From: Verrucomicrobiota bacterium
Lineage (GTDB): Bacteria > Verrucomicrobiota > Verrucomicrobiia > Limisphaerales > JADLHS01
Assembly: GCA_035327385.1 (NCBI GenBank)
Contig: DAOLDN010000001.1
Coordinates: 1-43,985, forward strand
Reading direction: 5' to 3'
DNA: 43,985 nucleotides
Position numbers and translations under genes: made by a program. Below the pieces are notes generated by a model. The model searched no databases, was not told the origin of the DNA, and was given only the letters and a program-made list of their open reading frames with translations. Below are positions 5,788-42,959 of the stretch, piece by piece. How positions within the stretch are numbered: the first letter of the stretch is position 1; every line of letters starts with the position of its first letter.

Positions 5788-5928
5788 ATGAAATTCCAAG
5801 CTCCAAGCTCCAAGCTCCAGAGAAATTCCAAGCCCCAAGCCCCAAGAGCGTGCGGAGTTGATCGGAATTTGAATTTTGGTGCTTCTCTGGTGCTTGGATG
5901 TTGGTCCTTGGAGCTTCCCTTGCCGTGA
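5788..5928 (+). repeat. family A heptamer palindrome, copy 1 (contains a 46-codon bridging ORF)
   Basis: (CCAAGCT)3 and (CCAAGCC)2 on the left, complementary TTGG-type heptamers on the right, with an inverted core CCAGAGAA / TTCTCTGG. ATG 5788 directly follows the nuoB TAA. The TGA at 5926-5928 overlaps GTG 5925. Confidence 0.85.
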
Positions 5929-7894: not shown

Positions 7895-8044
7895 ACTTTG
7901 CCGCAAAAGAACGCAGAGAACACAAAGGAGCGCGGGTCTGTGACCCGCAGCGGCCCGCTTTGTATTTGAACGTGCTGCGGCTCACAGAGCCGCGCTCCGC
8001 AGAGGTTTTTTGTGCTCTTTGTGTTCTTTCGTGGCTAACATAAA
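7895..8044 (+). repeat. composite element: family B arms enclosing a 72-nt family F palindrome
   Basis: Left arm ACTTTGCCGCAAAAGAACGCAGAGAACACAAAGG (7895-7928). Right arm TTTTGTGCTCTTTGTGTTCTTTCGTGGCTAACA (8007-8040). The inner palindrome 7927-7998 has 25-nt arms GGAGCGCGGGTCTGTGACCCGCAGC / GCTGCGGCTCACAGAGCCGCGCTCC. A 50-codon ORF 7891-8043 bridges the nuoD stop to the nuoE start. Confidence 0.8.
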
Positions 8045-8530
8045 ATGAGTTTCACTGTTCCAGCCAACTTGGAAGCCGAGATTGACGAGCTGATCACGCA
8101 TTATCCCGTGAAGCGCAGTGCGTCGCTCATGTTGCTGCACGCGTTGCAGGAGCACTTCGGCTACATCTCGCCCGAAGCGACCGAATGGGTCGCAAAGAAA
8201 CTCGGTTTGCAACCCATCAACGTTCACGAACTCGTGACGTTCTATCCAATGTTCCGTCAGTCAGCGCCGGGCAAATATCAGATCAAGGTCTGTCGCACGT
8301 TGAGCTGCGCGCTCGGTGGTTCGCACAAGTTACACGAACATTTCTGCACCAAACTCGGCCTCGATCCGCACGCGCACGGGTTGCAGACCTCGAAGGATGG
8401 CAAGTTTTCGGTCGAATTTGTGGAATGTCTTGCCGGTTGCGGCATGGCACCGGTGATGATGTGCAACGAGGATTTTTACGAAGGCGTCACGAACGCCAAA
8501 GCGGACGAAATCATGGGAGGCTGCAAATGA
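8045..8530 (+). CDS. nuoE: NADH-quinone oxidoreductase subunit E
   Basis: 2Fe-2S motif CRTLSCALGG ... VECLAGCGMAPVMM. Confidence 0.95.
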   Translation: MSFTVPANLEAEIDELITHYPVKRSASLMLLHALQEHFGYISPEATEWVAKKLGLQPINVHELVTFYPMFRQSAPGKYQIKVCRTLSCALGGSHKLHEHFCTKLGLDPHAHGLQTSKDGKFSVEFVECLAGCGMAPVMMCNEDFYEGVTNAKADEIMGGCK

Positions 8531-9003
8531 AGAAGCCGGGCCTCTATCTTGAAACCTCGATTGTGAGTTATCTCACCGCGAGACCGGCGAAAGATTTGAA
8601 CACGGCGGCGCACCAACAGATTACGGTGGAGTGGTGGGACACGAAGCGGAAGGGTTTCGACATCTACATCTCGAACGTGGTGGTGCGGGAGGCGGCTGCG
8701 GGTGATGCGGAAGTTGCGCAACGACGGTTAAAGATTTTGAAACCACTGCCGTTATTGCCGATCAACCGCGAGGTAGTCGCGCTCGCCCGAAAGTTTGGCA
8801 AGTTGGGCTGCGTGCCAGCGAAGGCCGCAGACGACGCTCTGCACATCGCGCTGGCGGCAGTGCATGGCGTACATTTTCTACTGACGTGGAACTGCACGCA
8901 CATCAACAACGTGGCGACGATTGATGAGATTCGGGAAGTTTGTGAGAATCATGGCTATGCATGTCCGGTCATTTGCACCCCGGACGAGTTGATTCGAATT
9001 TGA
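8527..9003 (+). CDS. PIN-domain (VapC-like) protein
   Basis: The ATG overlaps the nuoE TGA (ATGA). LYLETSIVSYL, a central acidic stretch, and DDALHIALAAVHGVHFLLTWNCTH resemble the PIN fold. The upstream part of the track ORF (8185-8526) is an out-of-frame overlap of nuoE. Confidence 0.65.
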   Translation: MKKPGLYLETSIVSYLTARPAKDLNTAAHQQITVEWWDTKRKGFDIYISNVVVREAAAGDAEVAQRRLKILKPLPLLPINREVVALARKFGKLGCVPAKAADDALHIALAAVHGVHFLLTWNCTHINNVATIDEIREVCENHGYACPVICTPDELIRI

Positions 9004-9006
9004 GTT

Positions 9007-9222
9007 ATGAAAGATCCAATTATTGCAGAGCTTCGTAAGATCCGCGATGCGCATGCTGCGAAGTTCAACTATGACTTCGATGCCATCGCTGCCGACTGGT
9101 TTAAGCAGGAGGCTGCTGCCCGGCGTGCTGGCCAAAAGTTTGTGGACTTGTCCGCCAAGCGAAAGCCGCGCCCGCGTCATCGTTCGGTTACGGTGAAGTC
9201 CAGCAAGGGGCGCAAAGCGTGA
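9007..9222 (+). CDS. small basic-tailed protein, putative partner of the PIN protein
   Basis: 71 aa, starting 3 nt after the PIN gene. MKDPIIAELRKIRDAHAAKFNYDFDAIAADW followed by a Lys/Arg-rich tail. Confidence 0.5.
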   Translation: MKDPIIAELRKIRDAHAAKFNYDFDAIAADWFKQEAAARRAGQKFVDLSAKRKPRPRHRSVTVKSSKGRKA

Positions 9223-9251: not shown

Positions 9252-9325
9252 TGGTTGCCCGACATGGATTTGAACCATGACAAACAGATTCAGAGTCTGC
9301 TGTGCTACCGTTACACCATCGGGCA
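9252..9325 (-). tRNA. tRNA-Gln (anticodon CUG), CCA encoded
   Basis: The reverse complement folds as a cloverleaf. Acceptor UGCCCGA/UCGGGCA. D arm GUGU-AACGGUA-GCAC. Anticodon stem GCAGA/UCUGU with loop CUCUGAA. Variable region UUGU. T arm CAUGG-UUCAAAU-CCAUG. Discriminator A, then CCA. 74 nt. Confidence 0.85.
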
Positions 9326-10818: not shown

Positions 10819-11052
10819 ATGAGCACGACAACTGAAAAAGTTTGTATCGAAGCCCTGAGCCTCCCGCGCGATGCCCGGGCGGAGATCGCCCATCGTCTGC
10901 TGGTGAGTTTGGAGACCGAAGATTTCTCGGATGACGTCAGCGAAACTTGGAAAAGCGAGATCAACCTGCGGCGGCAGGATTTCCGCGAAGGAAAGGCGAA
11001 TGCCGTATCCGCCGAAGAAGCAATCCGTCGCGCCCAGGCTGCGATTGAATGA
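10819..11052 (+). CDS. putative addiction-module antitoxin
   Basis: 77 aa. ALSLPRDARAEIAHRLLVSLE...WKSEINLRRQDFREGKA resembles the 'addiction module component' antitoxin family. It precedes a RelE/ParE gene with an ATGA overlap. Confidence 0.7.
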   Translation: MSTTTEKVCIEALSLPRDARAEIAHRLLVSLETEDFSDDVSETWKSEINLRRQDFREGKANAVSAEEAIRRAQAAIE

Positions 11053-11345
11053 AACCCGTCATCCTTCACTGTGAAGCCGATGTTGAACTTACCGCCGCCG
11101 CCAAGCGTTATGCTTGTCAAAGTCCTGAGTTGGCTCGGGACTTCGTGCGGGCGTTCCGCGCGGCGAAGGATGCCATTGAGAAGCAACCGGATCGCTTCTC
11201 CTTTCTGGACAAACCAGTCCGGCGAGTACGGGTTTCCGGGTTTCCGTATCGAATCGTTTACGAAGAAATGGACAACTGTGTTCAAGTGTTGGCGGTCATG
11301 CACGACAGCCGCGAACCCGGTTATTGGAAAAGCAGATTGAGTTAA
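11049..11345 (+). CDS. RelE/ParE-family toxin
   Basis: 98 aa. EL..AAKRYA...FPYRIVYEEMDNCVQVLAVMHDSREPGYW is the typical plasmid-stabilisation toxin pattern. Confidence 0.8.
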   Translation: MKPVILHCEADVELTAAAKRYACQSPELARDFVRAFRAAKDAIEKQPDRFSFLDKPVRRVRVSGFPYRIVYEEMDNCVQVLAVMHDSREPGYWKSRLS

Positions 11346-13093: not shown

Positions 13094-13265
13094 TTTGTAG
13101 CAGCCGACGAACGCGACGGACAATTCTGCAACAAGCTGTTGCAGGATTTGACGCAGCACGGGCTGGGAAGTCTGCGCTACGAACAGTGCGGTTTCGCGGA
13201 AGTCAGAGTGAACTTGCCGCCGGGCGGCGTGACAATCGAGATCTGATTGGCAATAGTATTGAGGT

Positions 13266-13481
13266 ATGAGTGTGACACTTGAACTACCGTTCCAGGTAAC
13301 GGACGAAGAAGTGCGGCTGGCGCTGGCGGTGCGGCTGTTTGAGAAAGGCCGCGTGACGCTTGGGCAGGCGGCAAAACTGGCGGGCTTCACCAAACGCGCC
13401 TTTATTGACGTGCTGGGGCGCGAAGGCGTGCCCGTCTCAAACTATCCGGCTGAAGAACTCGAAAAGGAAGTTCGCCGGTGA
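13266..13481 (+). CDS. UPF0175-family antitoxin-like protein
   Basis: 71 aa. LAVRLFEKGRVTLGQAAKLAGFTKRAFIDVLGREGVPV is the UPF0175 pattern. Confidence 0.75.
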   Translation: MSVTLELPFQVTDEEVRLALAVRLFEKGRVTLGQAAKLAGFTKRAFIDVLGREGVPVSNYPAEELEKEVRR

Positions 13482-13927
13482 GCCGCATCATCGTCAGCGA
13501 TAGTGCGTGCTTGATTGGACTCGAACGAATTCAACAACTCGATTTGTTGCCGGGCTTGTTCGATGAGGTGTTTGTGCCGCCCGCAGTCGCTGCTGAGTTT
13601 GGAACTCCGCTTGCGTGGCTGAAAGTGCGCGCACCGCAAGACGCGGGGTTCGTCTCCGCGATGAAATTGCTGGCTGACGACGGCGAAGCGGAAGCAATCG
13701 CCTTGGCAAAGGAACTCGGTTGTGAAGTGATTCTGGACGATTTACCCGCGCGCAAACTGGCGGCAAAACAAAATGTCAGTGTTGTCGGGCTGCTTGGTTT
13801 GCTGGTGCGTGCGAAAAACTCCAGGCGGTTGACCGAAATTCGTCCGTTGGTCGAGGCGCTGCGTCGCGAGAATTTCTTTTTCAGCGAGGCGCTGGTTGCC
13901 GAGGCCCTGCGGCTGGCGCGGGAATGA
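13478..13927 (+). CDS. DUF3368 (PIN-like) protein
   Basis: The GTG overlaps the upstream TGA (GTGA). IIVSDSACLIGLERIQQLDLLPGLFDEVFVPPAV...GEAEAIALAKELG. The UPF0175/DUF3368 pairing is a recurrent module. Confidence 0.75.
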   Translation: MSRIIVSDSACLIGLERIQQLDLLPGLFDEVFVPPAVAAEFGTPLAWLKVRAPQDAGFVSAMKLLADDGEAEAIALAKELGCEVILDDLPARKLAAKQNVSVVGLLGLLVRAKNSRRLTEIRPLVEALRRENFFFSEALVAEALRLARE

Positions 13928-15559: not shown

Positions 15560-15694
15560 ATGAAGCTCCAAACACCAACATCCAACATCCAGGGAAGCAC
15601 CAAGCTTCAAGCTCCAATCGAGGCGCGCGGCGGTATTGGTGTTTGGGATTTGGATGTTCTCTGGAGCTTGGAGCTTGGAGCTTGGAATTTTTAG
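15560..15694 (+). repeat. family A heptamer palindrome, copy 2 (44-codon bridging ORF)
   Basis: ATG 15560 lies 2 nt after the nuoI TGA. The TAG at 15692-15694 lies 1 nt before the nuoJ ATG. Contains a (CCAACAT) array, CCAGGGAA...TTCTCTGG, and (GGAGCTT)3. Confidence 0.85.
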
Positions 15695-15695
15695 A

Positions 15696-16202
15696 ATGGC
15701 AATCCCCGACATCTTATTTTACGTCTTCGCGATTGCGACGCTCTTATTTGGGGCGCTCGTCGTCGCGAATCCGTTTAGCCGCAACCCGGTCACGAGCGCG
15801 ATGTTTCTCGTGCTCACGATTATTTCCATGGCGGGATTGTTCGTGCTGCTGCACGCCTTCTTCCTCGCGGCCGTGCAAGTGGTGGTTTATGCAGGCGCGG
15901 TCATGGTGCTGTTTCTCTTCGTCATCATGCTGCTCGATTTGAAGGAGGAAGAGCGTCGCAAAATCAAACTGACAGGGTTGGTGGCAGGCGTGATTTCTGT
16001 CGGAGCCATCGTCGGCATCTTTATCCGCTCGCTGCTGGCAACACATCCGGGCAAAGACGCAAACCCCGCCGCAATTGGCGACACCGCCGCGCTGGGCAAA
16101 TTACTGTTCACGAAATATCTGCTGCCGTTTGAAATCATCTCCGTGTTGCTGCTGGTGGCGATGGTGGGCGTGATTCTCCTAAGCAAAAAGGACCTAAAAT
16201 AG
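15696..16202 (+). CDS. nuoJ: NADH-quinone oxidoreductase subunit J
   Basis: Start trimmed to MAIPDILFYVFAIATLLFG, outside the repeat. Hydrophobic ND6-like protein. Confidence 0.9.
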   Translation: MAIPDILFYVFAIATLLFGALVVANPFSRNPVTSAMFLVLTIISMAGLFVLLHAFFLAAVQVVVYAGAVMVLFLFVIMLLDLKEEERRKIKLTGLVAGVISVGAIVGIFIRSLLATHPGKDANPAAIGDTAALGKLLFTKYLLPFEIISVLLLVAMVGVILLSKKDLK

Positions 16203-16706
16203 CCGCGAAAGAACGCAAAGAACACATAGAAAGGAGATTCAAACATGCAAACCAAGACCATCAACGACCTGTGCGACAGCGTGAGGCAGACGGCGTATGA
16301 CGTTCATGTTTATCATGGCAACGGACATTTGGAGAAAGTGTATGAGAATGCGTTGGCAAATCGGCTTCGGAAAGCGGGCTTCGACGTGAAGCAACAGCAT
16401 CCGCTAAAGGTTTATGACGAGGACAGCACGGTCATCGGCGAATACTTCGCCGACCTCTTGGTTGATGGTCGCCTGATTGTCGAATTGAAAGCAGCCAAGA
16501 CTGTCGCCGACGAGCACGTCGCGCAAACGCTTGGCTATTTGAAAGCGTCGCGGATTGAGCATGGGTTGCTGATCAACTTTGGCTCATATCGTTTCCAGAT
16601 TCGGAAGTTCGTGTTGAGCAAAGGCAAGGTGAGCGAGGAAGGTTTAGGGCGATTGGCTTGCCTTCTGCCTTTTCTCTTTGCGATCTCTGCGTTCTTTCGC
16701 GGCTAA
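16200..16706 (+). mobile_element. TIR-bounded cargo unit carrying the GxxExxY gene (family B arms)
   Basis: Perfect 16-bp inverted repeat AGCCGCGAAAGAACGC (16201-16216) / GCGTTCTTTCGCGGCT (16689-16704). The nuoJ TAG and the cargo TAA both lie inside the arms. Confidence 0.45.
16245..16706 (+). CDS. GxxExxY protein (PD-(D/E)XK nuclease superfamily)
   Basis: GHLEKVYENAL is the GxxExxY motif. ADLLVDGRLIVELKA is a D...ExK nuclease core. Strong SD AAGGAG 8 nt upstream. The C-terminal tail is encoded by the right repeat arm. Confidence 0.8.
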   Translation: MQTKTINDLCDSVRQTAYDVHVYHGNGHLEKVYENALANRLRKAGFDVKQQHPLKVYDEDSTVIGEYFADLLVDGRLIVELKAAKTVADEHVAQTLGYLKASRIEHGLLINFGSYRFQIRKFVLSKGKVSEEGLGRLACLLPFLFAISAFFRG

Positions 16707-16714
16707 AAAAGAAA

Positions 16715-17020
16715 ATGAATGTCGGCCTTGAACATTATTTAGTGGTCAGCGCGCTGTTGTTTGCGCTGGGCCTGCTCGGCGTCATCGTGCGGCGCAATCT
16801 CATCGTGATTTACATGTCGCTGGAGTTGATGCTCAATTCGGCGAATCTCGCGCTCGTCTCTTTTTCGCGGTTCAACGACAACCTCAACGGCCAGGTGATG
16901 GTGTTCTTCATCATCACCGTGGCGGCGGCGGAAGTGGCGGTGGGCCTGGCGCTGATCGTGGCGCTGTATCGCAAACGCCGGTCGGCACATGTTGAAGACC
17001 TGACGAGCATGAAACTTTGA
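16715..17020 (+). CDS. nuoK: NADH-quinone oxidoreductase subunit K
   Basis: Start trimmed to MNVGLEHYLVVSALLFALGLLGV. 101 aa, ND4L-like. Confidence 0.92.
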   Translation: MNVGLEHYLVVSALLFALGLLGVIVRRNLIVIYMSLELMLNSANLALVSFSRFNDNLNGQVMVFFIITVAAAEVAVGLALIVALYRKRRSAHVEDLTSMKL

Positions 17021-17021
17021 A

Positions 17022-17162
17022 ATGAAGCTCCAAGCACCAACATCCAACATCCAGAGAAGCACCAAGTCTCAAGCTCCAATCGGGGCGAGCGGCGATTTTG
17101 GTGTTTGGGATTTGGATGTTCTCTGGAGCTTTGAGCTTGGAGCTTGGAATTTTCCGGAATGA
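17022..17162 (+). repeat. family A heptamer palindrome, copy 3 (46-codon bridging ORF)
   Basis: ATG 17022 lies 1 nt after the nuoK TGA. The TGA at 17160-17162 overlaps the nuoL ATG 17159 (ATGA). Confidence 0.85.
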
Positions 17163-19033
17163 AACTCGAAGCGTTACCTTGGCTGATCTTGTTCCTGCCG
17201 CTGCTCGCGGCGGGCATCATCGCGCTTTTTACCCTGCGCAACAAAGCCGTCAGCGCCACGTTATCCATCGGCGCGATTGTCACCGGCTTCGTCCTCACGC
17301 TGGCGGTGATCAAGTTCGGCGGCTGGGAAGCGCGCGAACTTTCCGTCAACTGGCTCTCCATCGGTAGTCTGACGGTGGATTTCGGCCTCAAGCTCGACGC
17401 GCTCAGCCTGATGATGTTGCTCATCGTCACCGGCGTCGGCAGCGCCATTCACATTTATTCCTACGGCTACATGCACGACGACCCGGGCTTCTCGCGCTTC
17501 TTCGCGTGCCTGAGCCTGTTCACGTTCTCGATGCTCGGCATCGTGTTGTCGAACAATTTCCTCCAGATGTTCATCTTCTGGGAACTGGTCGGTGTGTCGA
17601 GCTACCTGCTCATCGGGTTTTGGTTTGAGAAGGCCAGCGCGGCGGACGCGGCGAAAAAGGCATTCATCACGAATCGGCTGGGTGATTTTGGCTTCATTCT
17701 TGGAATTCTCATGGTGTGGGCAATGTTTGGATCGCTCTCGTTTGATGGAATGAAACCCGGTCTTGCGAGTTTCATGGCTGAACACAGCGGGCCAACGCCA
17801 CTTTTCTTCTTGGCAGGTTTGCTCATTTTCTGCGGCGCAGTTGGCAAGAGTGCTCAGTTCCCCCTGCATGTTTGGTTGCCGGATGCCATGGAAGGTCCAA
17901 CCCCGGTTTCGGCTTTGATCCATGCTGCTACGATGGTGGCTGCTGGTGTGTTCATGTTGTGTCGGGTTTTCTTTTTGCTCGAACCCAGCGGTGCGCTCAC
18001 CGTCATCGCGTGGATTGGCGGCTTCACCGCGTTGCTCGCCGCGCTCATCGCCGTCCAGCAAAACGACATCAAACGCATCCTCGCCTACTCGACGCTGTCG
18101 CAACTCGGCTACATGGTCATGGCCGTCGGGTTGCATTCGCCCGAGTCAGGCATGTTCCATCTGACCACGCACGCGTTCTTCAAGGCACTGCTGTTCCTCG
18201 GCGCCGGCTCGGTAATCCACGCGATGCATCACGAGCAGGACATCTGGAAGATGGGCGCGCTCCGCAAGAAAATGCCCGTCACGTTCTGGACATTCATGGT
18301 TGGCACAATTGCGCTGGCGGGCGTCTGGCCGTTGAGCGGCTTCTTCAGCAAGGACGCCATCCTCGCCGCTGCACATGAGCATAGCATTCCACTGTTCATC
18401 CTTGGCGTGTTCGTGGCGTTGCTCACCACGTTCTACATGTTTCGACTCGTGTTCGTGGCGTTTTTCGGCGCGGCCAAATCGCACGGAGTGGATCACGCGC
18501 ACGAATCACCCGGTGTCATGATCTGGCCGCTACGAATTCTTGCCATACTGAGCATCGTCGGTGGCGTCATCGGCATCGAATCGCTGTTCGCCGGTATGTT
18601 CAAGCCTGAAGGCGAACATCCGCACGGCCTCGTCGCGCAACTGATTTATCCGTTCCAACACGCGCCTGTCGCGGCGTTCAGCGGACTCGCGGTGTTCGCC
18701 ATCGGCCTGTTTGCTGCGTGGAAACTTTACGCGAACGCGAAGGAAGACCCGTTGCCCGCAAAACTCGGCGCATTGTCCAAGGCGATGCAGAACCGCTTTT
18801 ATTTCGACGAGATTTACGAAGCTACTTTCATCCGCGCGCACGACGCCATCGCGGCAGTGGCCGACTGGATTGACCGCTGGATCGTCGAGGGCTTTTGCAT
18901 CGGCCTCGTGCGCGGCGGAACGGATTTGACGGGCCGTGCATTGCGCCTCGTCCAGACCGGCAACCTCCAGACCTACGCCTTCCTGTTCGTGCTCGGCGTG
19001 GCCGTGGTGCTGTGGTTCGTGCTCGGAAAATGA
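17159..19033 (+). CDS. nuoL: NADH-quinone oxidoreductase subunit L
   Basis: Start trimmed to MKLEALPWLILFLPLL. Matching stretches are WLPDAMEGPTPVSALIHAATMVAAG and the antiporter-like TM pattern. Confidence 0.93.
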   Translation: MKLEALPWLILFLPLLAAGIIALFTLRNKAVSATLSIGAIVTGFVLTLAVIKFGGWEARELSVNWLSIGSLTVDFGLKLDALSLMMLLIVTGVGSAIHIYSYGYMHDDPGFSRFFACLSLFTFSMLGIVLSNNFLQMFIFWELVGVSSYLLIGFWFEKASAADAAKKAFITNRLGDFGFILGILMVWAMFGSLSFDGMKPGLASFMAEHSGPTPLFFLAGLLIFCGAVGKSAQFPLHVWLPDAMEGPTPVSALIHAATMVAAGVFMLCRVFFLLEPSGALTVIAWIGGFTALLAALIAVQQNDIKRILAYSTLSQLGYMVMAVGLHSPESGMFHLTTHAFFKALLFLGAGSVIHAMHHEQDIWKMGALRKKMPVTFWTFMVGTIALAGVWPLSGFFSKDAILAAAHEHSIPLFILGVFVALLTTFYMFRLVFVAFFGAAKSHGVDHAHESPGVMIWPLRILAILSIVGGVIGIESLFAGMFKPEGEHPHGLVAQLIYPFQHAPVAAFSGLAVFAIGLFAAWKLYANAKEDPLPAKLGALSKAMQNRFYFDEIYEATFIRAHDAIAAVADWIDRWIVEGFCIGLVRGGTDLTGRALRLVQTGNLQTYAFLFVLGVAVVLWFVLGK

Positions 19034-20145
19034 TGCCTCGATTCACCAACAACAAAACTCTGACCAAAGGCCGCCCGGCCTCGGGGAAGATTGTCGCTAC
19101 ATCGTCACGACAATTGGCGAAGGCTTCACCCAAAGCATTGCTGGCAGATGTGCGTGAGTTGATTCTCGCAGCCCGTGAAGGCGTGGCTCAAGCAGTCAAC
19201 GCGAGCCTTGTGACGCTTTACTGGCAAATTGGCAAACGCATCCACAAAGACGTTCTCCAAGAGAAGCGGGCGGAGTATGGGCAGAAGATTGTCGCCGCAC
19301 TGGGGCGACAATTAGAAACTGAGTTCGGGCGAGGCTTCACAGAGAAAAATCTTTGGCGCATGGTTCAGTTCACAGAGGCTTTTCCTAATGAACAAATTGT
19401 CGCCGCACTGCGGCGACAATTGGGCTGGACTCATTTCAGGCAGTTAATTCCTATCGAAGATCCGCTCAAGCGTGACTTCTACGCAGAGATGTGCCGGATT
19501 GAGAATTGGAGCACCCGGACGCTTGCAAAAAAGATCAGTGGACTACTTTTCGAGCGCACCGCCATCTCCAAGAAAACCGACAAGCTGATCCGTCAGGAAC
19601 TCAAAACGCTTCGCGAGGAAGACAAGCTTACCCCTGACCTTGTCTTCCGCGACCCTTACGTGCTGGATTTTCTAAAGCTGAAGGACACTTACAGTGAGAG
19701 TGACATCGAAGCGGCGATCTTGCGGGAGATTGAGTCGTTCATTTTGGAGTTGGGCGCAGGCTTTTGTTTTGTGACGCGCCAGAAGCGGATGCAAATTGAC
19801 TCGCGCGATTACTACCTCGACCTACTGTTCTATCACCGCAAGTTGCGCCGCCTCGTAGCGATGGATTTGAAGCTCGACGAATTCGACGCCGCCGACAAGG
19901 GGCAGATGGAGCTTTATCTCAACTGGCTGAAGAAACACGAGCAAGGCGCGGACGAAGCGCCGCCGTTGGGCATCATCCTGTGCGCGGGCAAGCGGCAGGA
20001 GCACGTTGAACTGCTGGCGATGGATCGCGACGGCATCCACGTCGCCAGCTACGTGACGAAGGAGATTCCGAAGAAACAGCTCGAACGAAAGCTTCACGAA
20101 GCCGTGCGTCTGGCGCGGGCGCGGTTGGAAAGGGGGAAACTATGA
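19030..20145 (+). CDS. YhcG/DUF1016-family PD-(D/E)XK nuclease
   Basis: The ATG overlaps the nuoL TGA. N-terminal stretches LVTLYWQIGKRI...GRGFTEKNLWRMVQF. C-terminal nuclease core YYLDLLFYHRKLRRLVAMDLKLDEF. Confidence 0.85.
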   Translation: MMPRFTNNKTLTKGRPASGKIVATSSRQLAKASPKALLADVRELILAAREGVAQAVNASLVTLYWQIGKRIHKDVLQEKRAEYGQKIVAALGRQLETEFGRGFTEKNLWRMVQFTEAFPNEQIVAALRRQLGWTHFRQLIPIEDPLKRDFYAEMCRIENWSTRTLAKKISGLLFERTAISKKTDKLIRQELKTLREEDKLTPDLVFRDPYVLDFLKLKDTYSESDIEAAILREIESFILELGAGFCFVTRQKRMQIDSRDYYLDLLFYHRKLRRLVAMDLKLDEFDAADKGQMELYLNWLKKHEQGADEAPPLGIILCAGKRQEHVELLAMDRDGIHVASYVTKEIPKKQLERKLHEAVRLARARLERGKL

Positions 20146-20714
20146 AAGAACTTTTCATAGGAATTGAGCCAAAGAACACAAAAGAATGTGTTAGCAGAAT
20201 TCTTGCGACAACAGCGGGATTTATCGCCCTAGCGTATCTGTTCAACGCGCCAATTCGCGTCGATAAATACTTCCTCATATTTTACGCAATGGCGTTTCTT
20301 CCTTGGATTGGATATTTCATCAAGCGAGCGGGAAAAGATAACATTGAATTTTCAGACCCCACATCAGAAAAAGTCTCCAAAGAAACCCTCGTTCAGATTC
20401 CAAAGGTACAGGAGGCCGTCAAATTTGAATCCCTCTCGCCGGAGGCAAAGCGAATCCTAAAGACGCTCGATTACTACCAGCGCCAAGGGTTTAAGAAACT
20501 CGACGCGGAAGGGCGTTGGGCGTTCACGATACCGTTTGGACATCCAAATCACGCCCAGTTCATGGGCGGAATTCTTGAGCTTCACAGTTCGGGGTTAATT
20601 TCAATGGATCACGGGACTGGGCGGTTTGGTCTTTCAGACGACGGGGTGAAACTGCTTTCGGAGAATCAGAACGATATTGGCAAAATCTCTGGCAGGTATG
20701 TTTTCGACAACTGA
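20142..20714 (+). CDS. hypothetical membrane protein (2 predicted TM helices + soluble C-terminal domain)
   Basis: ATGA overlap with yhcG. Predicted helices ILATTAGFIALAYLFNAPI and YFLIFYAMAFLPWIGYFI. Low GC. Confidence 0.6.
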   Translation: MKELFIGIEPKNTKECVSRILATTAGFIALAYLFNAPIRVDKYFLIFYAMAFLPWIGYFIKRAGKDNIEFSDPTSEKVSKETLVQIPKVQEAVKFESLSPEAKRILKTLDYYQRQGFKKLDAEGRWAFTIPFGHPNHAQFMGGILELHSSGLISMDHGTGRFGLSDDGVKLLSENQNDIGKISGRYVFDN

Positions 20715-22254: not shown

Positions 22255-22791
22255 ATGCCAACACCAACTGATTTGGAATGCTTTGTTCGGTGGTTTGCAG
22301 TGCCCGTTGAGACGCTGAAAACCTTGCCTAACGGCGACGCTGCATTTGTGGCTCTGTCGGTCGGTTTTCTTTTGTGTGAACGGTATTACAGGATTACTAC
22401 CACCAGCCAAGAGGAAGTGCCCGTAGACAAATCTAGGAACAGAGCCGCAGAAGAGATGAACGTCAACAAGAAGTTCTTCAGCATTTTCTGGTCAACCTAT
22501 CGAAATGGGCTGATGCACCAAGGAACACCTAAAATATATGAGTGCGACGGCATCAAATACAAGTGGATGATTGATGCGGAGTTTGAAGCCTACCCAACTT
22601 ACTATGACAGGGACGGGTTCAGATTCATTTGTCTCAACCCTTGGAAGTTTACCGACTTCATGATTTCGAAGTTTTTGAATAATCCGCAGCATTTGAATGG
22701 TTCTTTGATTTACGAGTTGGGTCACATCTTTGATGCAAAACTCGTTGGAAAACCAATACAAGTGCCGCTGAACGCAGCTTATCCCGATTAA
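22255..22791 (+). CDS. hypothetical protein with HEPN-like Rx4H motif
   Basis: 178 aa. FWSTYRNGLMHQG (R codon 22501-22503, H codon 22516-22518) is an R-N-x3-H motif. Low GC. The stop lies 9 nt before the nuoM ATG. Confidence 0.55.
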   Translation: MPTPTDLECFVRWFAVPVETLKTLPNGDAAFVALSVGFLLCERYYRITTTSQEEVPVDKSRNRAAEEMNVNKKFFSIFWSTYRNGLMHQGTPKIYECDGIKYKWMIDAEFEAYPTYYDRDGFRFICLNPWKFTDFMISKFLNNPQHLNGSLIYELGHIFDAKLVGKPIQVPLNAAYPD

Positions 22792-22800
22792 CTCAATTTG

Positions 22801-24342
22801 ATGTCCACACTGACCTTAATTTTTGCTCTGCCGTTGCTCGCCGCAATCGCACTGGCGTTCGTGCCCCGCAACTTTGCCGTCATCATGCGCGCCGTGGCGG
22901 TGGGCGTGACCGGCGTCACGATGCTGCTGGCTGTGCTGATGTTCTGGCAGTTCAATTGTGTCGAGCCTGATGCCAACGGATACCGGTTTGTCAGCACCAT
23001 TCCCGGACTCGGTGCGGAATCGCTCGGCATCGCCTGCAAGCTGGGCGTGGACGGCTTGAACGTGGGGCTGGTGTTGATGGGCGCGATCGTGGCGTTCGCG
23101 GCGGCGTGCTGCTCGTTCGAGATCAAATCGCGCGAGAAGGAATTTTACATCCTTCTGCTCACGATGACCGGCGGCATCCTCGGCGCGTTCATGTCGCTCG
23201 ACCTGTTTTTCTTCTACTTCTTCCATGAACTCGCGCTCGTGCCGACGTTCATCATGATCGGCGTGTGGGGTCGCGGCGAACGCAAGAATTTCGCGACGTT
23301 CCAGATCACGATTTATCTGAGCATCGGCGCGTTGCTCGCGCTCATCGGCCTCATTGCACTCTATCTGCAATTGCCCGCCGACGTCCGCACGTTCGACATT
23401 CCGACACTGACGAATTATTTCGCCGAAAACACGATGGCGCACAGCGCGCAGATGTTCATCTTCCCGCTGCTGCTGCTGGGCTTCGGAATCCTTGTTTCGC
23501 TCTGGCCATTCCATTCGTGGGCCGCGCTGGGTTACGGCTCTGCTCCAAGCGCAACAGCAATGCTCCATGCCGGCGTCTTGAAAAAGTTCGGGCTTTACGG
23601 TTTGATCCGCATCGCGATTCCGTTTTGTCCGGAGGTGGCGCAATCCCACCTCCAACTCATCGCATGGCTCGCGCTTGGCAACGTGCTTTACGTCGGCTGG
23701 GTGGCGATGCGGCAGAAGAATCTGAACCTGCTCATCGGTAATTCCAGCGTGGCGCACATGGGCATGATCTTCCTGGGCATCGCCAGCCTGAACCTCATCG
23801 GCGTGACCGGCGCGGTGGTCATCATGGTGGCGCACGGTTTCCTCGCGGCGCTGACGTTCGGCCTCAGCGGTTACATCTACAATCAGACCGGCACGCTGGA
23901 AATGAGCGAGCTGGGCGGGCTGGCGAAGAAACTGCGGTTCATCGGCGTGGCGTTTGTGATGGCGGCGATGGCGGGCTGTGGCTTGCCGGGTTTCCTGAAT
24001 TTTGTGGGCGAAGTCAAGGTGTTCTTTGGCGCGTGGCAGGTGCCAGCGTTGCGCACAGTCACGGTGCTGGCAGTGTGGGGCGCGTTGTTGATTGGCGCGG
24101 TTTACATGTTGCGCGCGGTGCGGGCCGTGATGCACGCGGACATGCCAGAAAAATGGGCGGCGGTTTCCGATGCGAACCTGTGGCGCAAGCTGCCGTATGC
24201 GGTGTTGATCGCGAGCCTGTTGGTGTTCGGATGCTTTCCCAAGCTGCTCACAGAAAAGGTCACGCCGGTGACGGAGCAGATTGTAAGCATGGCGACGGTG
24301 AAGCAAGAAGCGCCTGTTGTGGTGGCGGAGATTCAGAAATGA
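22801..24342 (+). CDS. nuoM: NADH-quinone oxidoreductase subunit M
   Basis: ATG 22801 (the track starts at TTG 22798). ND4-like TM pattern, WPFHSWA...HAGVLKKFGLYG. Confidence 0.93.
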   Translation: MSTLTLIFALPLLAAIALAFVPRNFAVIMRAVAVGVTGVTMLLAVLMFWQFNCVEPDANGYRFVSTIPGLGAESLGIACKLGVDGLNVGLVLMGAIVAFAAACCSFEIKSREKEFYILLLTMTGGILGAFMSLDLFFFYFFHELALVPTFIMIGVWGRGERKNFATFQITIYLSIGALLALIGLIALYLQLPADVRTFDIPTLTNYFAENTMAHSAQMFIFPLLLLGFGILVSLWPFHSWAALGYGSAPSATAMLHAGVLKKFGLYGLIRIAIPFCPEVAQSHLQLIAWLALGNVLYVGWVAMRQKNLNLLIGNSSVAHMGMIFLGIASLNLIGVTGAVVIMVAHGFLAALTFGLSGYIYNQTGTLEMSELGGLAKKLRFIGVAFVMAAMAGCGLPGFLNFVGEVKVFFGAWQVPALRTVTVLAVWGALLIGAVYMLRAVRAVMHADMPEKWAAVSDANLWRKLPYAVLIASLLVFGCFPKLLTEKVTPVTEQIVSMATVKQEAPVVVAEIQK

Positions 24343-24482
24343 AAAGCACCAAGCACCAAGCACCAACATCCAGAGAAACTCCAAACCCCAAGCTTCAAGC
24401 GGGCGGCGGGCGTTTCCTGGTATTTGAAAATTGGAGCTTCTCTGGAGCTTGGAGGTTGGAATTTGGAGCTTTCAACAGATGA
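24339..24482 (+). repeat. family A heptamer palindrome, copy 4 (47-codon bridging ORF)
   Basis: The ATG at 24339 overlaps the nuoM TGA (ATGA) and the TGA at 24480-24482 overlaps the nuoN ATG 24479 (ATGA). Contains (CACCAAG) heptamers and CCAGAGAA...TTCTCTGG. Confidence 0.85.
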
Positions 24483-28780: not shown

Positions 28781-29024
28781 GAGCCGACCGTCCGCTGCGC
28801 GGCTTCAGTGGTTCAAAGCGCGAATTGAGATTCGGCGATTCTCTCCCCGTTCGAGGCGGAGAGGGAGAATCTCGGTCAGTCTCTTTGCGATCTGTGCGTT
28901 CTTTTGTGGCTGATCGTCGTCTGGAGGCGGCGCTGCTGATCATTGGAGGAACTCGCGGACGAGCCGTCCGCGCTCCTTGCAAATTTTCGTGTAGTTCGTG
29001 TGTTTCGTGGTTAGAGTTTCCCGG

Positions 29025-30086
29025 ATGAAAACGAAGAAAGTGGCGATTGTCGGGGCATCCGGATATTCCGGCGAGGAACTGGTGCGCCTGCTGTTGAATC
29101 ATCCGCAGGCGGAACTGGTGGCGGTCACTTCGCGCCAGAGCGCCGGCCAGACGCTGGGCCAGGTGTTTCCCAAGTTCGCAAGCCATCCCAGGGCGAAGTC
29201 GCTGCGTTTCAGCGAGCCGAACTCCGAGGTGCTGGCCAAGCAGGCGGACATCGTTTTCCTCGCGCTGCCTCACGGTGTGGCCGCCGAATACGCCGTGCCG
29301 TTGCTGGAAGCGGGCTGCATCGTCATTGATTTGAGCGCCGATTTCCGGCTCAAGAGCGCGGACATCTACAAGGAATTCTACGCGCACGATCATCCCGCGC
29401 CGGACCTGCTGGCAAAATCCGTTTATGGTCTGCCGGAAATCCACCGCGACCAGATCAAGAAAGCCACGCTCATCGCGTCGCCCGGGTGTTATCCCACGAG
29501 CATTCTGCTGCCGACGATTCCGTTGTTGAAGGCAGGCATCATCAAGCCGCACGGGATCATCGCCGATTCTTTGAGCGGTGTCAGCGGCGCGGGTCGCAAG
29601 GCGGAGGTGGATTATCTGTTCTGCGAGTGCAACGAAAGCGTCCGGCCCTACGGCATTCCCAAGCACCGGCATTTGTCGGAGATCGAGGAGCAACTGTCTC
29701 TGGCCGCAGGAGCGCAGGTGACGGTCCAGTTCACGCCACATTTGATTCCTGTCAATCGAGGTATCCTGACGACGTTGTATCTCGCGCCCGCAAATCATTT
29801 CAGCACACCCGACGAAGTCGCGAAACTCGGCGAACAGATTGCCGCCTGCTATCGGACTGCTTACGCGAACGAACCTTTCGTTCGCTTGCTCGAAGGCAAG
29901 GCGTTTCCCGACACCAAGAACGTCGTTGGCACAAACGTCTGCGAAATCGCGTGGCGACTGGACGCACGCACGGGCCGGCTGATTGTGATGAGCGCCGAGG
30001 ACAATCTGACCAAGGGCGCCAGCGGCCAGGCCGTTCAAAGCATGAACATCCTCTGCGGCTGGCCGGAGACGGCGGGGCTGGTTTGA
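29025..30086 (+). CDS. argC: N-acetyl-gamma-glutamyl-phosphate reductase
   Basis: Start trimmed to MKTKKVAIVGASGYSGEELVRLL. The active-site region is ASPGCYPTS. Confidence 0.93.
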   Translation: MKTKKVAIVGASGYSGEELVRLLLNHPQAELVAVTSRQSAGQTLGQVFPKFASHPRAKSLRFSEPNSEVLAKQADIVFLALPHGVAAEYAVPLLEAGCIVIDLSADFRLKSADIYKEFYAHDHPAPDLLAKSVYGLPEIHRDQIKKATLIASPGCYPTSILLPTIPLLKAGIIKPHGIIADSLSGVSGAGRKAEVDYLFCECNESVRPYGIPKHRHLSEIEEQLSLAAGAQVTVQFTPHLIPVNRGILTTLYLAPANHFSTPDEVAKLGEQIAACYRTAYANEPFVRLLEGKAFPDTKNVVGTNVCEIAWRLDARTGRLIVMSAEDNLTKGASGQAVQSMNILCGWPETAGLV

Positions 30087-30365
30087 AGGAAGAATGCAGA
30101 ATGAAGAATGAAGAAACGGGTGTTCTGTCGCTTGGCGACGGCCTGACAAGGGCTAATTGCCGCGAACGCTCCAAAAGCGGCGGAGGGCCGCCGCAGTCCA
30201 AGACGCTACCGCGTTCAATGAACTCTCGCCCATTCGCGAAGCGTCCCGGAGTGCGCCGGTCCTCTGGCGCTTTTTTCACGCAACTCCACAAGCCTTCCCT
30301 CCACCGCGCAGTCACCAATCACGCTTGTGGTCATTCGTCATTCGTCATTCGTCATTCGTCATTTG
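30087..30365 (+). repeat. composite element: GAATGAA-type heptamer arm / family D copy 3 / (CATTCGT)4 arm
   Basis: Left arm GAAGAATGCAGAATGAAGAATGAAGAA (30087-30115). Family D palindrome at 30173-30276. Right arm (CATTCGT)x4 at 30331-30364. A 92-codon ORF 30101-30379 ends in a TGA that overlaps GTG 30376. Confidence 0.75.
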
Positions 30366-30375
30366 GACTCCTCCC

Positions 30376-34151: not shown

Positions 34152-35492
34152 ATGAAGCAACAATTCAAAGTCATCGAAGGTTCAATCACGGCGCCGCAAG
34201 GCTTCCTCGCCAGCGGAGTGTTTTGCGACATCAAACGCCTGGGCACGGGCAAAGGGTCGCAGAAAGGAAAGAAACGCGACCTCGCACTCATCGTTTCCGA
34301 AGTGCCGGCGACCGTCGCGGGCATGTTCACGACCAATCAGGTCTGTGCCGCGCCTGTGAAAGTGTGTGCTGAACGCGTGAAGAAAGGCGTGGCGCAGGCG
34401 ATTGTCGTGAACTCCGGCAATGCCAACGCCTGCACCGGCCGACAGGGCATGAAGGACGCACGCGAAATGACGGCGCAGGTCGCGAAGATTTTTCACATGC
34501 CGGAACAACATGTTCTGGTCGGCAGCACAGGACGCATCGGAGTGACGATGCCGATGGACAATGTGAGATCGGGCATCCGCCACGCCGCGCAGTTACTGGG
34601 CAACGATGCCGCTCATGCCACCGAAACCGCTGAAGCCATCATGACCAGCGATTCGCGCCAGAAACAGATTGCCGTTGAATTCAAATTGGGTGGCAAAACG
34701 GTGCGCATTGGCGGCATTTGCAAGGGCGCAGGAATGATCCAACCGGGAATGTCCGCCACCGGCGCACGACCGGCTGCGTTGCCGCACGGTGGATTGCACG
34801 CGACGATGCTGGGTTTTATCACCACGGACGCCGCGATTGAGGCAAAAGCGTTGCAGGCCGCGTTGCAGGAAGCCGTGGCGAACAGTTTCAACCGCATCAC
34901 CGTGGATGGCGACATGAGCACGAACGACACGGTGCTGGTGCTGGCGAATGGGCTGGCGGGGAATGAAAACATCCAACATCCAACATCCAACATCCAACAC
35001 CGAACGTTTCAGGCTGCGCTCACGTATGTCTGTCTGGAACTGGCGAAGATGATTGTACGCGATGGCGAAGGCGTGCATCGCGTGGTGACTGTGCGCGTGA
35101 ACGGCGCAAAGACGATTCAAGATGCCGATGCCGCCGCGCGTGCGGTGGCGAACAGCGCGCTAGTAAAAACAAGCTGGCACGGCGGCGACCCGAACTGGGG
35201 GCGCATCATTGACGCCATCGGTTATTCTCCGGCAACTGTCGTGGAGGAGAAGATTGACATCGGCTATTCCGCGCCCGGCAGCCGGAAGGTTCTATGGAGC
35301 TTGAAACGCGGCCAGCCGACGAAGGCGACGTTCAAGCAACTGTGTCTCGCCGTTGCTCCCAAGGAATTCGAACTGCGCATCAACCTTAACCTCGGCAAGG
35401 CCGCCGCCGTCATGTATGCAGCAGATTTGACCGAGGAATACGTGGACTTTAACAAAGGCGACGTGACTGATCCGACGACACTGGGAGGCTGA
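34152..35492 (+). CDS. argJ: bifunctional ornithine acetyltransferase / N-acetylglutamate synthase
   Basis: Start trimmed to MKQQFKVIEGSITAPQGFLASG. Matching stretches are the autoprocessing site HATMLGFITTDA, NRITVDGDMSTNDT and IVRDGEG. Confidence 0.9.
   Translation: MKQQFKVIEGSITAPQGFLASGVFCDIKRLGTGKGSQKGKKRDLALIVSEVPATVAGMFTTNQVCAAPVKVCAERVKKGVAQAIVVNSGNANACTGRQGMKDAREMTAQVAKIFHMPEQHVLVGSTGRIGVTMPMDNVRSGIRHAAQLLGNDAAHATETAEAIMTSDSRQKQIAVEFKLGGKTVRIGGICKGAGMIQPGMSATGARPAALPHGGLHATMLGFITTDAAIEAKALQAALQEAVANSFNRITVDGDMSTNDTVLVLANGLAGNENIQHPTSNIQHRTFQAALTYVCLELAKMIVRDGEGVHRVVTVRVNGAKTIQDADAAARAVANSALVKTSWHGGDPNWGRIIDAIGYSPATVVEEKIDIGYSAPGSRKVLWSLKRGQPTKATFKQLCLAVAPKEFELRINLNLGKAAAVMYAADLTEEYVDFNKGDVTDPTTLGG
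34970..34997 (+). repeat. (CATCCAA)x4 heptamer array inside argJ
   Basis: Four perfect tandem heptamers, translated in frame as NIQHPTSNIQH. The heptamer is the same one as in the left arms of family A. Confidence 0.9.
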
Positions 35493-35627
35493 TTTGTTAG
35501 CCACGGATTCACCATGTGGAACACGGATGAGGTTCAAACTGGACATGCTTATTTGAAAGGCGCAGGCTCGACCCCATAGAACAAGACAGGCTGTAAAATT
35601 GTAACCTAGTATCTGTTCGGCAAACCG

Positions 35628-36203: not shown

Positions 36204-36328
36204 ACTGCAACCATCGCCGCCCGATCAGCCCGCGTTCTTAATTGTTCCCCCATTGCCCGCACAGTTCGTCCGCAATCAGAAGATCTGTGTTTTATCTATG
36301 TTCGTCTGCGGCTAACTTTTGGCACAAC

Positions 36329-41030: not shown

Positions 41031-41348
41031 AAGCGTGAATTCGCGCCGGTTGTGATTGCGGCGACAACCTTAATGACATGCTTGCATCGCTGCAAATTCA
41101 TTATTTGTGCGACAGCTTCGTCCGGCGACTGACACCGCCTCCAGCAGCGCCTGCATGCCGGGGGAAATCGCTGAAACGTCGAATGTCTGTCTCCGCGCAA
41201 GCGTGCTGTGGACGGGGACTGTCCGCGCTCCGGCGGCAGTGCCCGATTTTGTCCACCGGGCGAATCCACCGGACACTGATCTGGAACTCTTGCCGCAAGT
41301 TGTGGTTTGAAATCCGCCCGGCGTCTGTGGCTAAATGCTCCCCGCGTT

Positions 41349-42230: not shown

Positions 42231-42262
42231 TTTGGGATTTACGAATTACGATTTACGCGTAG
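42228..42262 (+). repeat. family C 8-mer arm (left type)
   Basis: TGATTTGGGATTTACGAATTACGATTTACGCG. The argB TGA is its first triplet. It shares the 19-mer GATTTACGAATTACGATTT with 42882-42907. Confidence 0.8.
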
Positions 42263-42296
42263 TGCGCGAACCGGGGACGAGCGCAGCCATCGCGCA

Positions 42297-42869
42297 ATGT
42301 CAGTCCGTGAACACGACGCATACATACTTCGCGAGAACACCGGAACATCCGGCGTGGTGGAATCCGCCCGAACCGCCGTCGAACTGCTGGCGGATCACGA
42401 CATTCCGCATCTGATTGTCGGCGGGCTTGCCGTCCAGGAACACGGCTATCCACGGGTGACCATGGACGTGAACATTGTTGTTCCGGACGTGATGGAGGCC
42501 GTGGAATGGTTGACAGCAAACCTGACCGGGCCGTTTTACCGTGTGGCCGATTTTCCTGACCGCGTCGAATACCGCCGCAATGGCGTGATGATTGACGTGC
42601 TGCCCGCCGGACGGGTTGTGAAAGACGGCTGCAAGGTTCCGTTTCCAACCCCGATCCGGGTCACGGAGCAGTTTCAGATCGTGACTCTGGAGGATTTGAT
42701 CTCTCTCAAACTGGACAGTTGGAGCAACAGCCCACACAAGCGGCTCCGGGACAAATCGGACGTTGTGGAACTGATCCAGCGCCGCAAATTGCCTCGCGAC
42801 CTGGCCGTCAATCCCGTCGTGCGCCCCCTCTACATCGAAACCTGGGACGCGTTGAACGCTGAGAAGTGA
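42297..42869 (+). CDS. hypothetical protein, possible minimal nucleotidyltransferase fold
   Basis: HLIVGGLAVQEHGYPRVTMDVNIVV resembles the GG..A...HG..R.T.D.D. motif of small NTases/AbiEii-like proteins, but reads D-V-N. The start is uncertain. Confidence 0.5.
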   Translation: MSVREHDAYILRENTGTSGVVESARTAVELLADHDIPHLIVGGLAVQEHGYPRVTMDVNIVVPDVMEAVEWLTANLTGPFYRVADFPDRVEYRRNGVMIDVLPAGRVVKDGCKVPFPTPIRVTEQFQIVTLEDLISLKLDSWSNSPHKRLRDKSDVVELIQRRKLPRDLAVNPVVRPLYIETWDALNAEK

Positions 42870-42958: not shown

Positions 42959-42959
42959 C

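Follow-up and report, generated by a model that had tools for sequence, protein, structure and literature searches.

Between nuoJ and nuoK of a Verrucomicrobiota bacterium (Limisphaerales; contig DAOLDN010000001.1, positions 1 to 43,985, hereafter the window) lies a gene for a GxxExxY-family PD-(D/E)XK nuclease that is bracketed by two inverted arms. Gene and arms together are a real, discrete and conserved cassette. In several phyla such arms are a trait of the gene family, and their type shifts along with the protein subfamily. A gene-plus-arms package that is accompanied by cargo-less hairpins across bacterial phyla points to an undescribed family of selfish elements. For the window itself the explanation favoured here, at slightly better than even odds (roughly 0.55), is that positions 16200-16705 hold one copy of a selfish cassette that is widespread, compact (~450-600 bp) and promoter-less and has non-autonomous hairpin derivatives.

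The design is a GxxExxY nuclease gene between inverted arms of ~30 nt, each built of 2-4 tandem units of 8-10 nt. In the window the TAG of the left arm closes nuoJ, a Shine-Dalgarno sequence lies at the inner edge of that arm, and the open reading frame (ORF) continues across the right arm. With its stop 8 nt before the ATG of nuoK, the host genes could stay translationally coupled. Under the favoured explanation the arms may act as DNA-level recognition arrays for the cassette's own nuclease, and the nuclease would promote the spread or maintenance of the cassette and of its arm-only derivatives. Spread could proceed by homing-type repair at empty junctions or, alternatively, by structure-specific cutting at hairpins or cruciforms, while loaded copies would decay through internal deletion into arm-only hairpins and solo arms.

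Anatomy and level of constraint

The 3' part of nuoJ (NADH dehydrogenase chain 6; 15696-16202, + strand; PF00499, 4.8e-40, with orthologues in 80 loci) ends in a TAG (16200-16202) that forms the outermost three nucleotides of the left arm TAGCCGCGAAAGAACGCAAAGAACACATAGA (16200-16230, +). The right arm TCTTTGCGATCTCTGCGTTCTTTCGCGGCTA (16675-16705, +) is its complement, and an inverted-repeat search aligned the two over 31 nt at 87%. The left arm consists of three tandem units of 9-10 nt (CGCGAAAGAA, CGCAAAGAA and CACATAGAA; Tandem Repeats Finder gives a period of 9 at 16208-16231) and the right arm likewise of three. A Shine-Dalgarno-like AAGGAG (16231-16236, +), read from the sequence and kept in four related loci (L008, L014, L022 and L074), begins at the last base of the left arm (16230/16231), and the cassette ATG follows 8 nt further on. 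The ORF of 153 amino acids (16245-16706, +) ends in a TAA at 16704-16706, in the terminus of the right arm, and after an A-rich spacer the ATG of nuoK (16715-17020, +; PF00420, 1.3e-30) stands 8 nt past this stop. The element, 506 bp in length and co-oriented with the nuo operon, occupies a junction that is normally 4 nt long; its sole ORF codes for a protein with a PD-(D/E)XK core (125 amino acids), and there is no space for a second gene.

The 16-mer AGCCGCGAAAGAACGC at 16201-16216 has its exact reverse complement at 16689-16704, and the perfect inverted repeat grows to 18 bp once the flanking T/A and one more inner pair are counted. In 2000 composition-preserving shuffles of both ends the longest perfect repeat reached 13 bp, and among 1173 pairs of equal spacing across the window it reached 11 bp. 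An earlier model-made reading of the letters alone (the sequence-only reading) had described complementary 16-bp arms, an extended match of about 23/26, and the stops of nuoJ and of the cargo inside the arms; all of this is present in the sequence, with the perfect repeat somewhat longer and the extended match slightly better than described.

The protein matches TIGR04256 over profile positions 2-116 of 116 (1.2e-34; 119.2 bits, cut-off 35) and PF13366 (PDDEXK_3; 9.4e-32; 110.3 bits, cut-off 22). The TIGR04256 match covers residues 9-123, the family core (16269-16613), and residues 124-153 form an extra tail that runs through a spacer and the right arm. The name-giving motif reads G27-H-L-E30-K-V-Y33, and E30, D70, K82 (in VELK) and Q94 are invariant in an alignment of 32 sequences. 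An AlphaFold2 model (mean confidence, pLDDT, 83) shows an alpha-beta PD-(D/E)XK core with a low-confidence tail. Its Foldseek neighbours in the PDB are weak (template-modelling scores of 0.36-0.49) and comprise Cas4, Hjc/Hje resolvases and restriction-endonuclease-like proteins; being so generic, they give no ground for preferring resolvase-like over restriction-like action, or the reverse, from the fold. A sequence search of the PDB found no relative of the protein, and PADLOC gave no convincing model match for it. The 120 closest homologues are all 145-166 amino acids long and nearly all 151-153, a uniformity which indicates that read-through to the terminal stop is kept. The family is large, with 9014 clusters at 50% identity matching at E<=1e-3, and the function of PF13366 is listed as unknown (PMC3424549). 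In the literature library searched, no published description of the family's function, of the arms or of the cassette was found.

Codon-position variability, determined from six orthologues, differs sharply along the ORF. The core shows.10/.03/.42 at the three positions, the spacer part of the tail.20/.18/.52, and the part encoded by the right arm a flat.19/.25/.12. The core protein is under strong purifying selection and, at 85-95% amino acid identity against 77-93% for NuoJ and NuoK together, is more conserved than its neighbours. As codon periodicity is absent from it, the right arm is conserved as DNA and not as protein. Mismatches between arms comprise 96 transversions against 69 transitions, and G-U pairs number 40 on the sense strand against 29 on the antisense strand; there is neither a wobble nor a strand bias, and without wobble bias the constraint on the arms looks to be at the level of DNA.

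These data bear on a reading at the level of RNA, in which the element would behave like the intervening sequences (IVSs) of 23S rRNA: the arms would form a stem, RNase III would cut it, the nuoJ and nuoK messages would be separated and GxxExxY expression would be controlled. The anatomical parallel is close. In Coxiella burnetii a 428-nt IVS forms an inverted-repeat stem whose loop carries an ORF preceded by tandem heptamers, and RNase III excises it (PMC4990558). Like the cassette, IVSs that code for the S23p four-helix bundle are short (~430-750 nt), hold one small ORF in a stem loop of terminal inverted repeats with tandem heptamers upstream, sit inside an essential and highly expressed transcription unit, occur sporadically among relatives and decay by deletion; the window has this layout too, one small ORF looped out between terminal inverted repeats that make up the stem. 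In RNAfold the arms pair in one long-range stem, in both the minimum-free-energy and the centroid structure (z = -4.1, 0/100 shuffles), and in most loci the cassette is co-oriented with the upstream gene and abuts it. The cassette nevertheless lies at an intergenic junction of an mRNA and codes for GxxExxY instead of S23p, with no rRNA in the window or in any of the 60 loci scanned, and its arms lack the pairing-preserving substitutions expected of selected RNA structure. Of 51 inserts at the nuoJ/nuoK junction of relatives, 37 fold better as the antisense than as the mRNA strand (p = 0.0008). Rfam found no family at the arms in the window or the 60 loci, where its matches were tRNAs only, and solo arms and arm-only hairpins between convergent genes (lptB-der, described below) are hard to fit to the processing of operon RNA. 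An RNA-level role is for these reasons unlikely, although it could coexist with a selfish cassette. Maintenance of the arms for mRNA pairing was dropped as a candidate, given the better antisense folding of the 51 junction inserts and the absence of wobble bias, even though the RNA would fold.

Arms across the gene family

A profile-based metagenome scan that retained one locus per metagenome yielded 77 usable GxxExxY loci of 35-83% identity, with 162 windows displaced by 1-1.5 kb as controls. The best inverted repeat across the gene scored at least 24 in 55 of the 77 loci (71%) against 2 of the 162 controls, and at least 28 in 49 loci against none of the controls. When all sequences collected were scanned without bias for inverted repeats 250-1500 nt apart, 58 of 89 pairs enclosed a GxxExxY gene; the other recurrent class was a known one, the gene for a REP-associated tyrosine transposase (RAYT) flanked by repetitive extragenic palindromes (REPs). 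The expectation of the sequence-only reading that other GxxExxY paralogues carry arms was therefore borne out at 71% of loci, and its proviso that the arms should not be unpaired low-complexity sequence is answered by the 18 bp against at most 13 in shuffles. The arms are compositionally biased and internally repetitive, and a chance likeness of two purine/pyrimidine-rich stretches might be suspected on that account. This is refuted by the same shuffles and by the recurrence of arms, seen in 71% of unrelated family members but in 1% of controls, and the arms are also conserved in seven orthologous loci; the probability left to chance is negligible.

Among 61 cassettes the arm-to-arm span is 425-640 bp and the ATG comes after the left arm in 43. 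In 39 cassettes the stop codon comes ahead of the right arm, in 17 it falls within that arm and in five it follows it. Arms that donate stop codons, as the sequence-only reading had it, are thus found at the window cassette, but since the stop precedes the right arm in 39/61 such donation is a common by-product of tight packing and no rule. The best self-period of the arms is 8-10 nt in 45/54, with 2-4 tandem units of 8-10 nt per arm, and 30/54 left arms hold at least two cores of the form CRCRRAG (ACGCAAAG, ACGCAGAG, CACGAAG and similar). Both arms of one element are concordant at variable positions. In the subfamily nearest to the window protein (50-68% identical), arms of the TAGCCRCAAAAAGG type sit at the junction of allantoinase and allantoicase genes, where the upstream gene again ends in the TAG of TAGCC. 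The upstream neighbour is co-directional in 35/39 cases, and in 25 of these 35 the left arm starts at most 20 nt from its stop.

One metagenomic locus (L089, 1038-4153) has 33 copies of the 9-nt unit of its cassette arms, TTCTACACG, within 5.4 kb, where 1.0 is expected; they lie at no fewer than seven intergenic sites, and one of these is a four-fold tandem array of the entire left arm just upstream of the gene. On four other contigs (L082, 31-900; L083, L092 and L001) two GxxExxY cassettes stand one behind the other, and after each comes a hairpin that shares its arm type, which looks like local duplication of the whole unit.

Three annotated isolates of different phyla carry a GxxExxY gene with arms of 25-30 nt and the same grammar: Sphingomonas parapaucimobilis between fabD and fabG, Bernardetia between ade and a mannose-1-phosphate guanylyltransferase gene (manC), and Bacteroides finegoldii between radA and the gene for an FAD protein. 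In Sphingomonas the ORF runs through the right arm and stops 2 nt ahead of the fabG ATG. Used as a query, the arm of the B. finegoldii cassette matched 22 plasmid or chromid records at 92 places in total, and 15 of these records are from Bacteroides. The arm of the Sphingomonas cassette matched 12 places on five replicons of the same strain, while tblastn found a single GxxExxY gene in the B. finegoldii records and a single one in the Sphingomonas strain. The four arm places inspected (gmd-fcl, dnaN-exonuclease, lptB-der and hisF-hisE) are cargo-less hairpins that start right after stop codons. In both B. finegoldii and S. parapaucimobilis, then, a gene is bracketed by an inverted repeat that is also dispersed as hairpins in the genome, the arrangement that characterizes a REPtron. 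The hisF-hisE gap of S. parapaucimobilis (L167, 901-1270) has three nested levels of inverted repeat, with outer CACGCGAAGACGCGAGG arms, inner arms of three GCGCGGAGG units and an innermost palindrome, and this nesting suggests repeated insertion into hairpin loops.

Gain, loss and age at one junction

A scan based on NuoJ collected 80 loci with NuoJ identities of 72-87%, by their titles nearly all Verrucomicrobiota, Limisphaerales or subdivision 3, plus a few metagenome-assembled genomes under other names. The nuoJ/nuoK junction is empty in 28 of them, with a gap of ~4 nt or less (aaaTAAC/Tatg, or overlapping codons), and the empty form is uniformly TAAC/T-ATG (for example gatttgaaaTAACatgcacgtcgg). 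It is loaded in seven (L008, L014, L022, L046, L059, L074 and L077), where 505-520 nt hold an orthologous GxxExxY gene, 78-88% identical in amino acids, between the same arms. One locus (L079) retains a 159-nt remnant, in which the start codon and the gene's 3' end survive along with both arms, and is demonstrably a deletion derivative of a loaded cassette; another (L049) has a different small ORF. The remaining 43 junctions contain inserts of 45-192 nt, mostly hairpins, of at least eight families in all. Five of these (L003, L005, L010, L016 and L035) are arm-only hairpins of the window arm type and two (L018 and L045) have a right arm of this type alone. The other hairpins belong to at least seven further families whose arms are also tandem units, of 7-9 nt (GAAGATG, GGAGTRTT, GTTAAAT, CCGAAAT, ACGCAGAG and others). 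Across Limisphaerales species these unrelated families of tandem-unit hairpins, at least eight in number, share exactly one 4-nt junction, and close relatives differ in the family they carry.

Loaded taxa are scattered on a tree of 1430 amino acids from NuoH to NuoL, junction states are also patchy on a tree of 269 amino acids, and sister taxa with ~90% identical flanks differ in state. The insertion polymorphism that the sequence-only reading had looked for among relatives is thus seen as empty, loaded and deleted forms, and its view that the arms can be empty or loaded agrees with the arm-only hairpins at this junction, within the window (7899-8038) and in Bacteroides and Sphingomonas. As the empty junction is uniform, the empty state appears to be ancestral, which suggests repeated gain or allele exchange; neither the 269-amino-acid nor the 1430-amino-acid tree separates repeated gain from repeated loss at this site.

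A further arrangement occurs between nuoL and nuoM of some relatives, where a GxxExxY paralogue lies as hairpin-gene-hairpin in the order A-B'-gene-B-A' (L056, 8960-9580; also L020, L033 and L013). In L056, L020 and L033 the arms across the gene match better than those within each hairpin, and in loci of the L056 type A:A' and B':B pair near-perfectly while the local hairpins have 1-2 mismatches per 9-nt unit. Every unit of the inner pair has made the same change, from CAAAG to CCAAG, so that concerted evolution or replacement of units is implied. In the paralogue of another nuo operon (L029) both arms are inside the ORF. An integron gene cassette, which has one composite attC site at its 3' end in an integrase-linked array, was rejected as a model for the element because here two arms flank the ORF and, in hairpin-gene-hairpin loci, the cognate partners lie across the gene and not within each hairpin; no integrase was noticed among the window ORFs that were read and scanned, a dedicated search not having been made.

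The nested nuoL/nuoM loci could also be taken to mean that the hairpin was there first, as a slot, and that the ORF alone is mobile, GxxExxY genes having split generic intergenic tandem-unit hairpins by insertion into their loops. Long-range pairs that are better than local ones, the unrelated palindromes in other hairpin loops (window 7927-7998, L002 and L001/L009/L047), the three levels of L167 and the eight or more hairpin families at one junction are all in line with this. Against it, arm type tracks protein subfamily across unrelated contexts and phyla, the L079 remnant derives from a loaded cassette, and the toxin-antitoxin modules of the same operon have no arms. In addition, a GAGATT that matches the 5' leader of the cassette (GGAGATTC) is retained, as read by eye, in the loops of two arm-only hairpins, L003 and L010. 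A moving ORF in a standing hairpin is accordingly improbable, more so than an RNA-level element.

Several observations weigh against the selfish, mobile cassette itself. Many of the hairpin families at the junction have units unrelated to GxxExxY arms, and 30/43 loci are without further arm 10-mers within 2-12 kb. The counts of one gene with many hairpins come from PLSDB records, which are perhaps not whole genomes. The GxxExxY family had no match in 50,697 phage records and its carriers among plasmids and chromids number just 6-8, all of them large. When cassettes and flanks were compared all against all, no recent transposition was found: GxxExxY pairs of at least 89% identity always share flanks, and only pairs of 78-82% differ in context. 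Nucleotide divergence of the cassette follows that of nuoJ/K (r = 0.63), the pattern that long vertical inheritance in place would give. No consistent target-site duplication was found between empty and filled junctions or in the flanks of the 61 cassettes. Strong purifying selection could equally be read as host-beneficial function, and binding or cutting of the arms or of the empty junction by the nuclease is a prediction.

The step from empty aaaTAACatg to filled aaaTA-GCC...GGC-TA-aaaaag does fit a TA duplication, but TA is palindromic and could belong to the repeat, and other subfamilies show no common flank. The terminal inverted repeats of a transposon or of a miniature inverted-repeat transposable element (MITE) are present, as 31 nt at 87% with a perfect 18-bp core. 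The only ORF, in turn, is no recognised transposase (DDE, HUH, serine or tyrosine), and near-identical copies at unrelated sites were not seen with one locus sampled per metagenome. Having diverged along with its flanks, the cassette has long been in residence and is not a MITE-like vehicle of recent activity. Of the MITE-like vehicle proposed in the sequence-only reading, the discrete gene-plus-arms unit stands, whereas near-identical copies at different loci and a clear target-site duplication were not found and the divergence runs with the flanks; the role of homing or mobilising nuclease that it gave to the GxxExxY protein is putative.

Perhaps the gene is instead domesticated or of benefit to the host, in defence, repair or as an addiction-type stabiliser of essential operons, with arms that are operator-like autoregulatory arrays and no mobility at all. 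The strong conservation of the core above that of NuoJ and NuoK, the long co-divergence with the flanks and an operon rich in toxin-antitoxin genes and genes of PDC-S02, a candidate defence system, would suit such a role. It accounts poorly for a patchy distribution among close relatives with empty sites and decayed copies, for arms that are inverted and placed at both ends, for the many cargo-less arm copies elsewhere and for the lack of a convincing PADLOC match. It is considered a long shot, slightly less probable even than the pre-existing slot.

The selfish cassette favoured here works like RAYT/REPIN systems and ORF-bearing IVSs without being a member of either, since it fails their defining criteria of enzyme or location. 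As in RAYT/REPIN, a small nuclease-type gene lies between inverted repeat copies that are also found as many cargo-less intergenic hairpins, and both systems are chromosomal, vertically persistent and low in gene copy number. They differ in the enzyme, a PD-(D/E)XK protein of ~125 amino acids against an HUH/Y1 (IS200-like) transposase; in the arms, arrays of 8-10-nt tandem units against a stem-loop tagged with GTAG/CGTC; and in that the GxxExxY cassette sits inside operons and is read through, its mobilisation being putative. IS200-like RAYT genes (MSLHSYTRCWLHIVWAT...) with inverted REP hairpins (CACCCGGCTTCAGCCGGGTG), in units of ~610 bp, also occur in the nuo operons of several relatives (L003, 4499-5119; L017, L018, L020, L022, L039, L045, L056 and L074), which allows a direct comparison of the two designs.

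I-Ssp6803I is an example of a homing enzyme with the PD-(D/E)XK fold. The cassette resembles homing endonuclease genes in that relatives have, at one exact position, an intact, a degenerate or no copy of a small nuclease ORF and that intact copies are under purifying selection; its states recall the cycle of invasion, decay and loss described for such genes. It is, however, intergenic instead of lying in an intron or intein, it has long inverted arms that homing genes lack, and no characterised homing enzyme is similar to the GxxExxY protein in sequence, or closely so in structure. The eukaryotic Foldback transposons have inverted arms of short tandem repeats and sometimes cargo. Like MITEs such as the Correia elements of Neisseria, the arm-only copies are intergenic inverted-repeat elements of 65-190 nt that are co-transcribed with their neighbours; unlike MITEs and Foldback elements, the cassette has no DDE transposase partner and no demonstrable duplication of TA or another target, and its copies are old and diverged.

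A broader proposal, advanced tentatively and thought clearly less probable than the reading of the window alone, is that GxxExxY proteins are the dedicated nucleases of mobile hairpin elements that form a class of their own in prokaryotes, unrecognised so far and spread over several phyla. These nucleases would recognise the arms as arrays of 8-10-nt tandem units and act either on hairpins and cruciforms or on empty gene junctions, spreading the cassette together with cargo-less hairpins as a PD-(D/E)XK counterpart of RAYT/REPIN. If true, this might also explain the origin of ORF-bearing intervening sequences in rRNA. The link to an arm grammar, to cargo-less hairpins and to gain and loss at fixed junctions in itself lends a large family of unknown function a definite role that can be tested, with B. 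finegoldii and S. parapaucimobilis as tractable organisms. Few enzymes are tied to bacterial repeat families, and a nuclease class would join them. The link explains the odd repeat-encoded N- and C-terminal tails on annotated proteins, and it parallels the thirty-year-old question of how ORF-bearing intervening sequences move.

Other repeats and inserts in the window

Within its 44 kb the window holds two further copies of the cassette arms. Between nuoD and nuoE a cargo-less element of the same arm family (7899-8038; 16-mer matches with two mismatches, on both strands) has arms at 7899-7927 and 8007-8038, and its loop is a nested, unrelated palindrome of 72 nt (7927-7998; inner inverted repeat of 25 nt, 92%), much as the sequence-only reading had placed it (7895-7928 and 8007-8040). 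A solo right-arm copy, TCTCTTTGCGATCTGTGCGTTCTTTTGTGGCTGA (28880-28913, +), is 30/34 identical to 16673-16706 and has no left partner; it corresponds to a single arm that the same reading had set at 28878-28913. The three other single arms it listed are weak as arms of this type. The one at 13094-13120 found no support, 28985-29015 is an arm of a different family with CACGAA units, and 41321-41335 is a 13-nt motif, CGTCTGYGGCTAA, common to the leaders of two argB paralogues (36300-36316 and 41321-41335). These paralogues are ~75% identical at the 5' end, and their homology ends exactly at CGTCTGYGGCTAA, which itself ends like an arm terminus. TTAGCCRCR occurs seven times in the window against 0.69 expected. 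A loose regular expression for the unit motif gave nine arrays against five expected and was uninformative.

The SUKH-like gene, which has a weak SMI1_KNR4 match under the Pfam cut-off, had been taken for a second cargo of the same arms (35494-35530 and 36279-36316). This is marginal: the arms score 29 with transition-tolerant scoring only, a score reached by 1/1000 shuffles and by 4/813 window-wide pairs, and a strict aligner found no arms around the gene.

A second hairpin family, with 7-nt units (AAGCWCC / AACATCC ... GGWGCTT), occupies the nuoA-B (5791-5916), nuoI-J (15563-15690), nuoK-L (17025-17152) and post-nuoN (24342-24472) gaps, and none of its members was seen with cargo in the window. 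Five tandem AACATCC units also stand in frame in the coding sequence of argJ (34966-35005; …NIQHPTSNIQH…), where a repeat arm appears to be tolerated inside a protein. At 42235-42959, arms of a GATTTAC type (21 nt, 86%) surround an ORF of 190 amino acids (42297-42869) without a Pfam or PADLOC match, followed by a hairpin of GATTTAC-type units at 42868-42958; this may be a different cargo family on the same design. Just 3' of argC (30085-30366), arrays of four GAATGAA and five GTCATTC units face each other across ~215 nt.

Five further nuo junctions carry small genes without inverted arms. The nuoE-F insert (8527-9222) holds a PIN-domain gene and a small ORF, the nuoF-G insert (10819-11345) Unstab_antitox and ParE genes, and the nuoG-H insert (13266-13927) UPF0175 and DUF3368 genes. 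Between nuoL and nuoM (19030-20714) there is a DUF1016/YhcG PD-(D/E)XK nuclease gene (PADLOC candidate PDC-S02) with an unknown ORF, and between nuoM and nuoN (22255-22791) an unknown ORF of 178 amino acids. A tRNA-Gln(CTG) gene on the - strand (9252-9325; Rfam 66 bits, also ARAGORN) lies in the nuoE-nuoF gap beside the PIN module.

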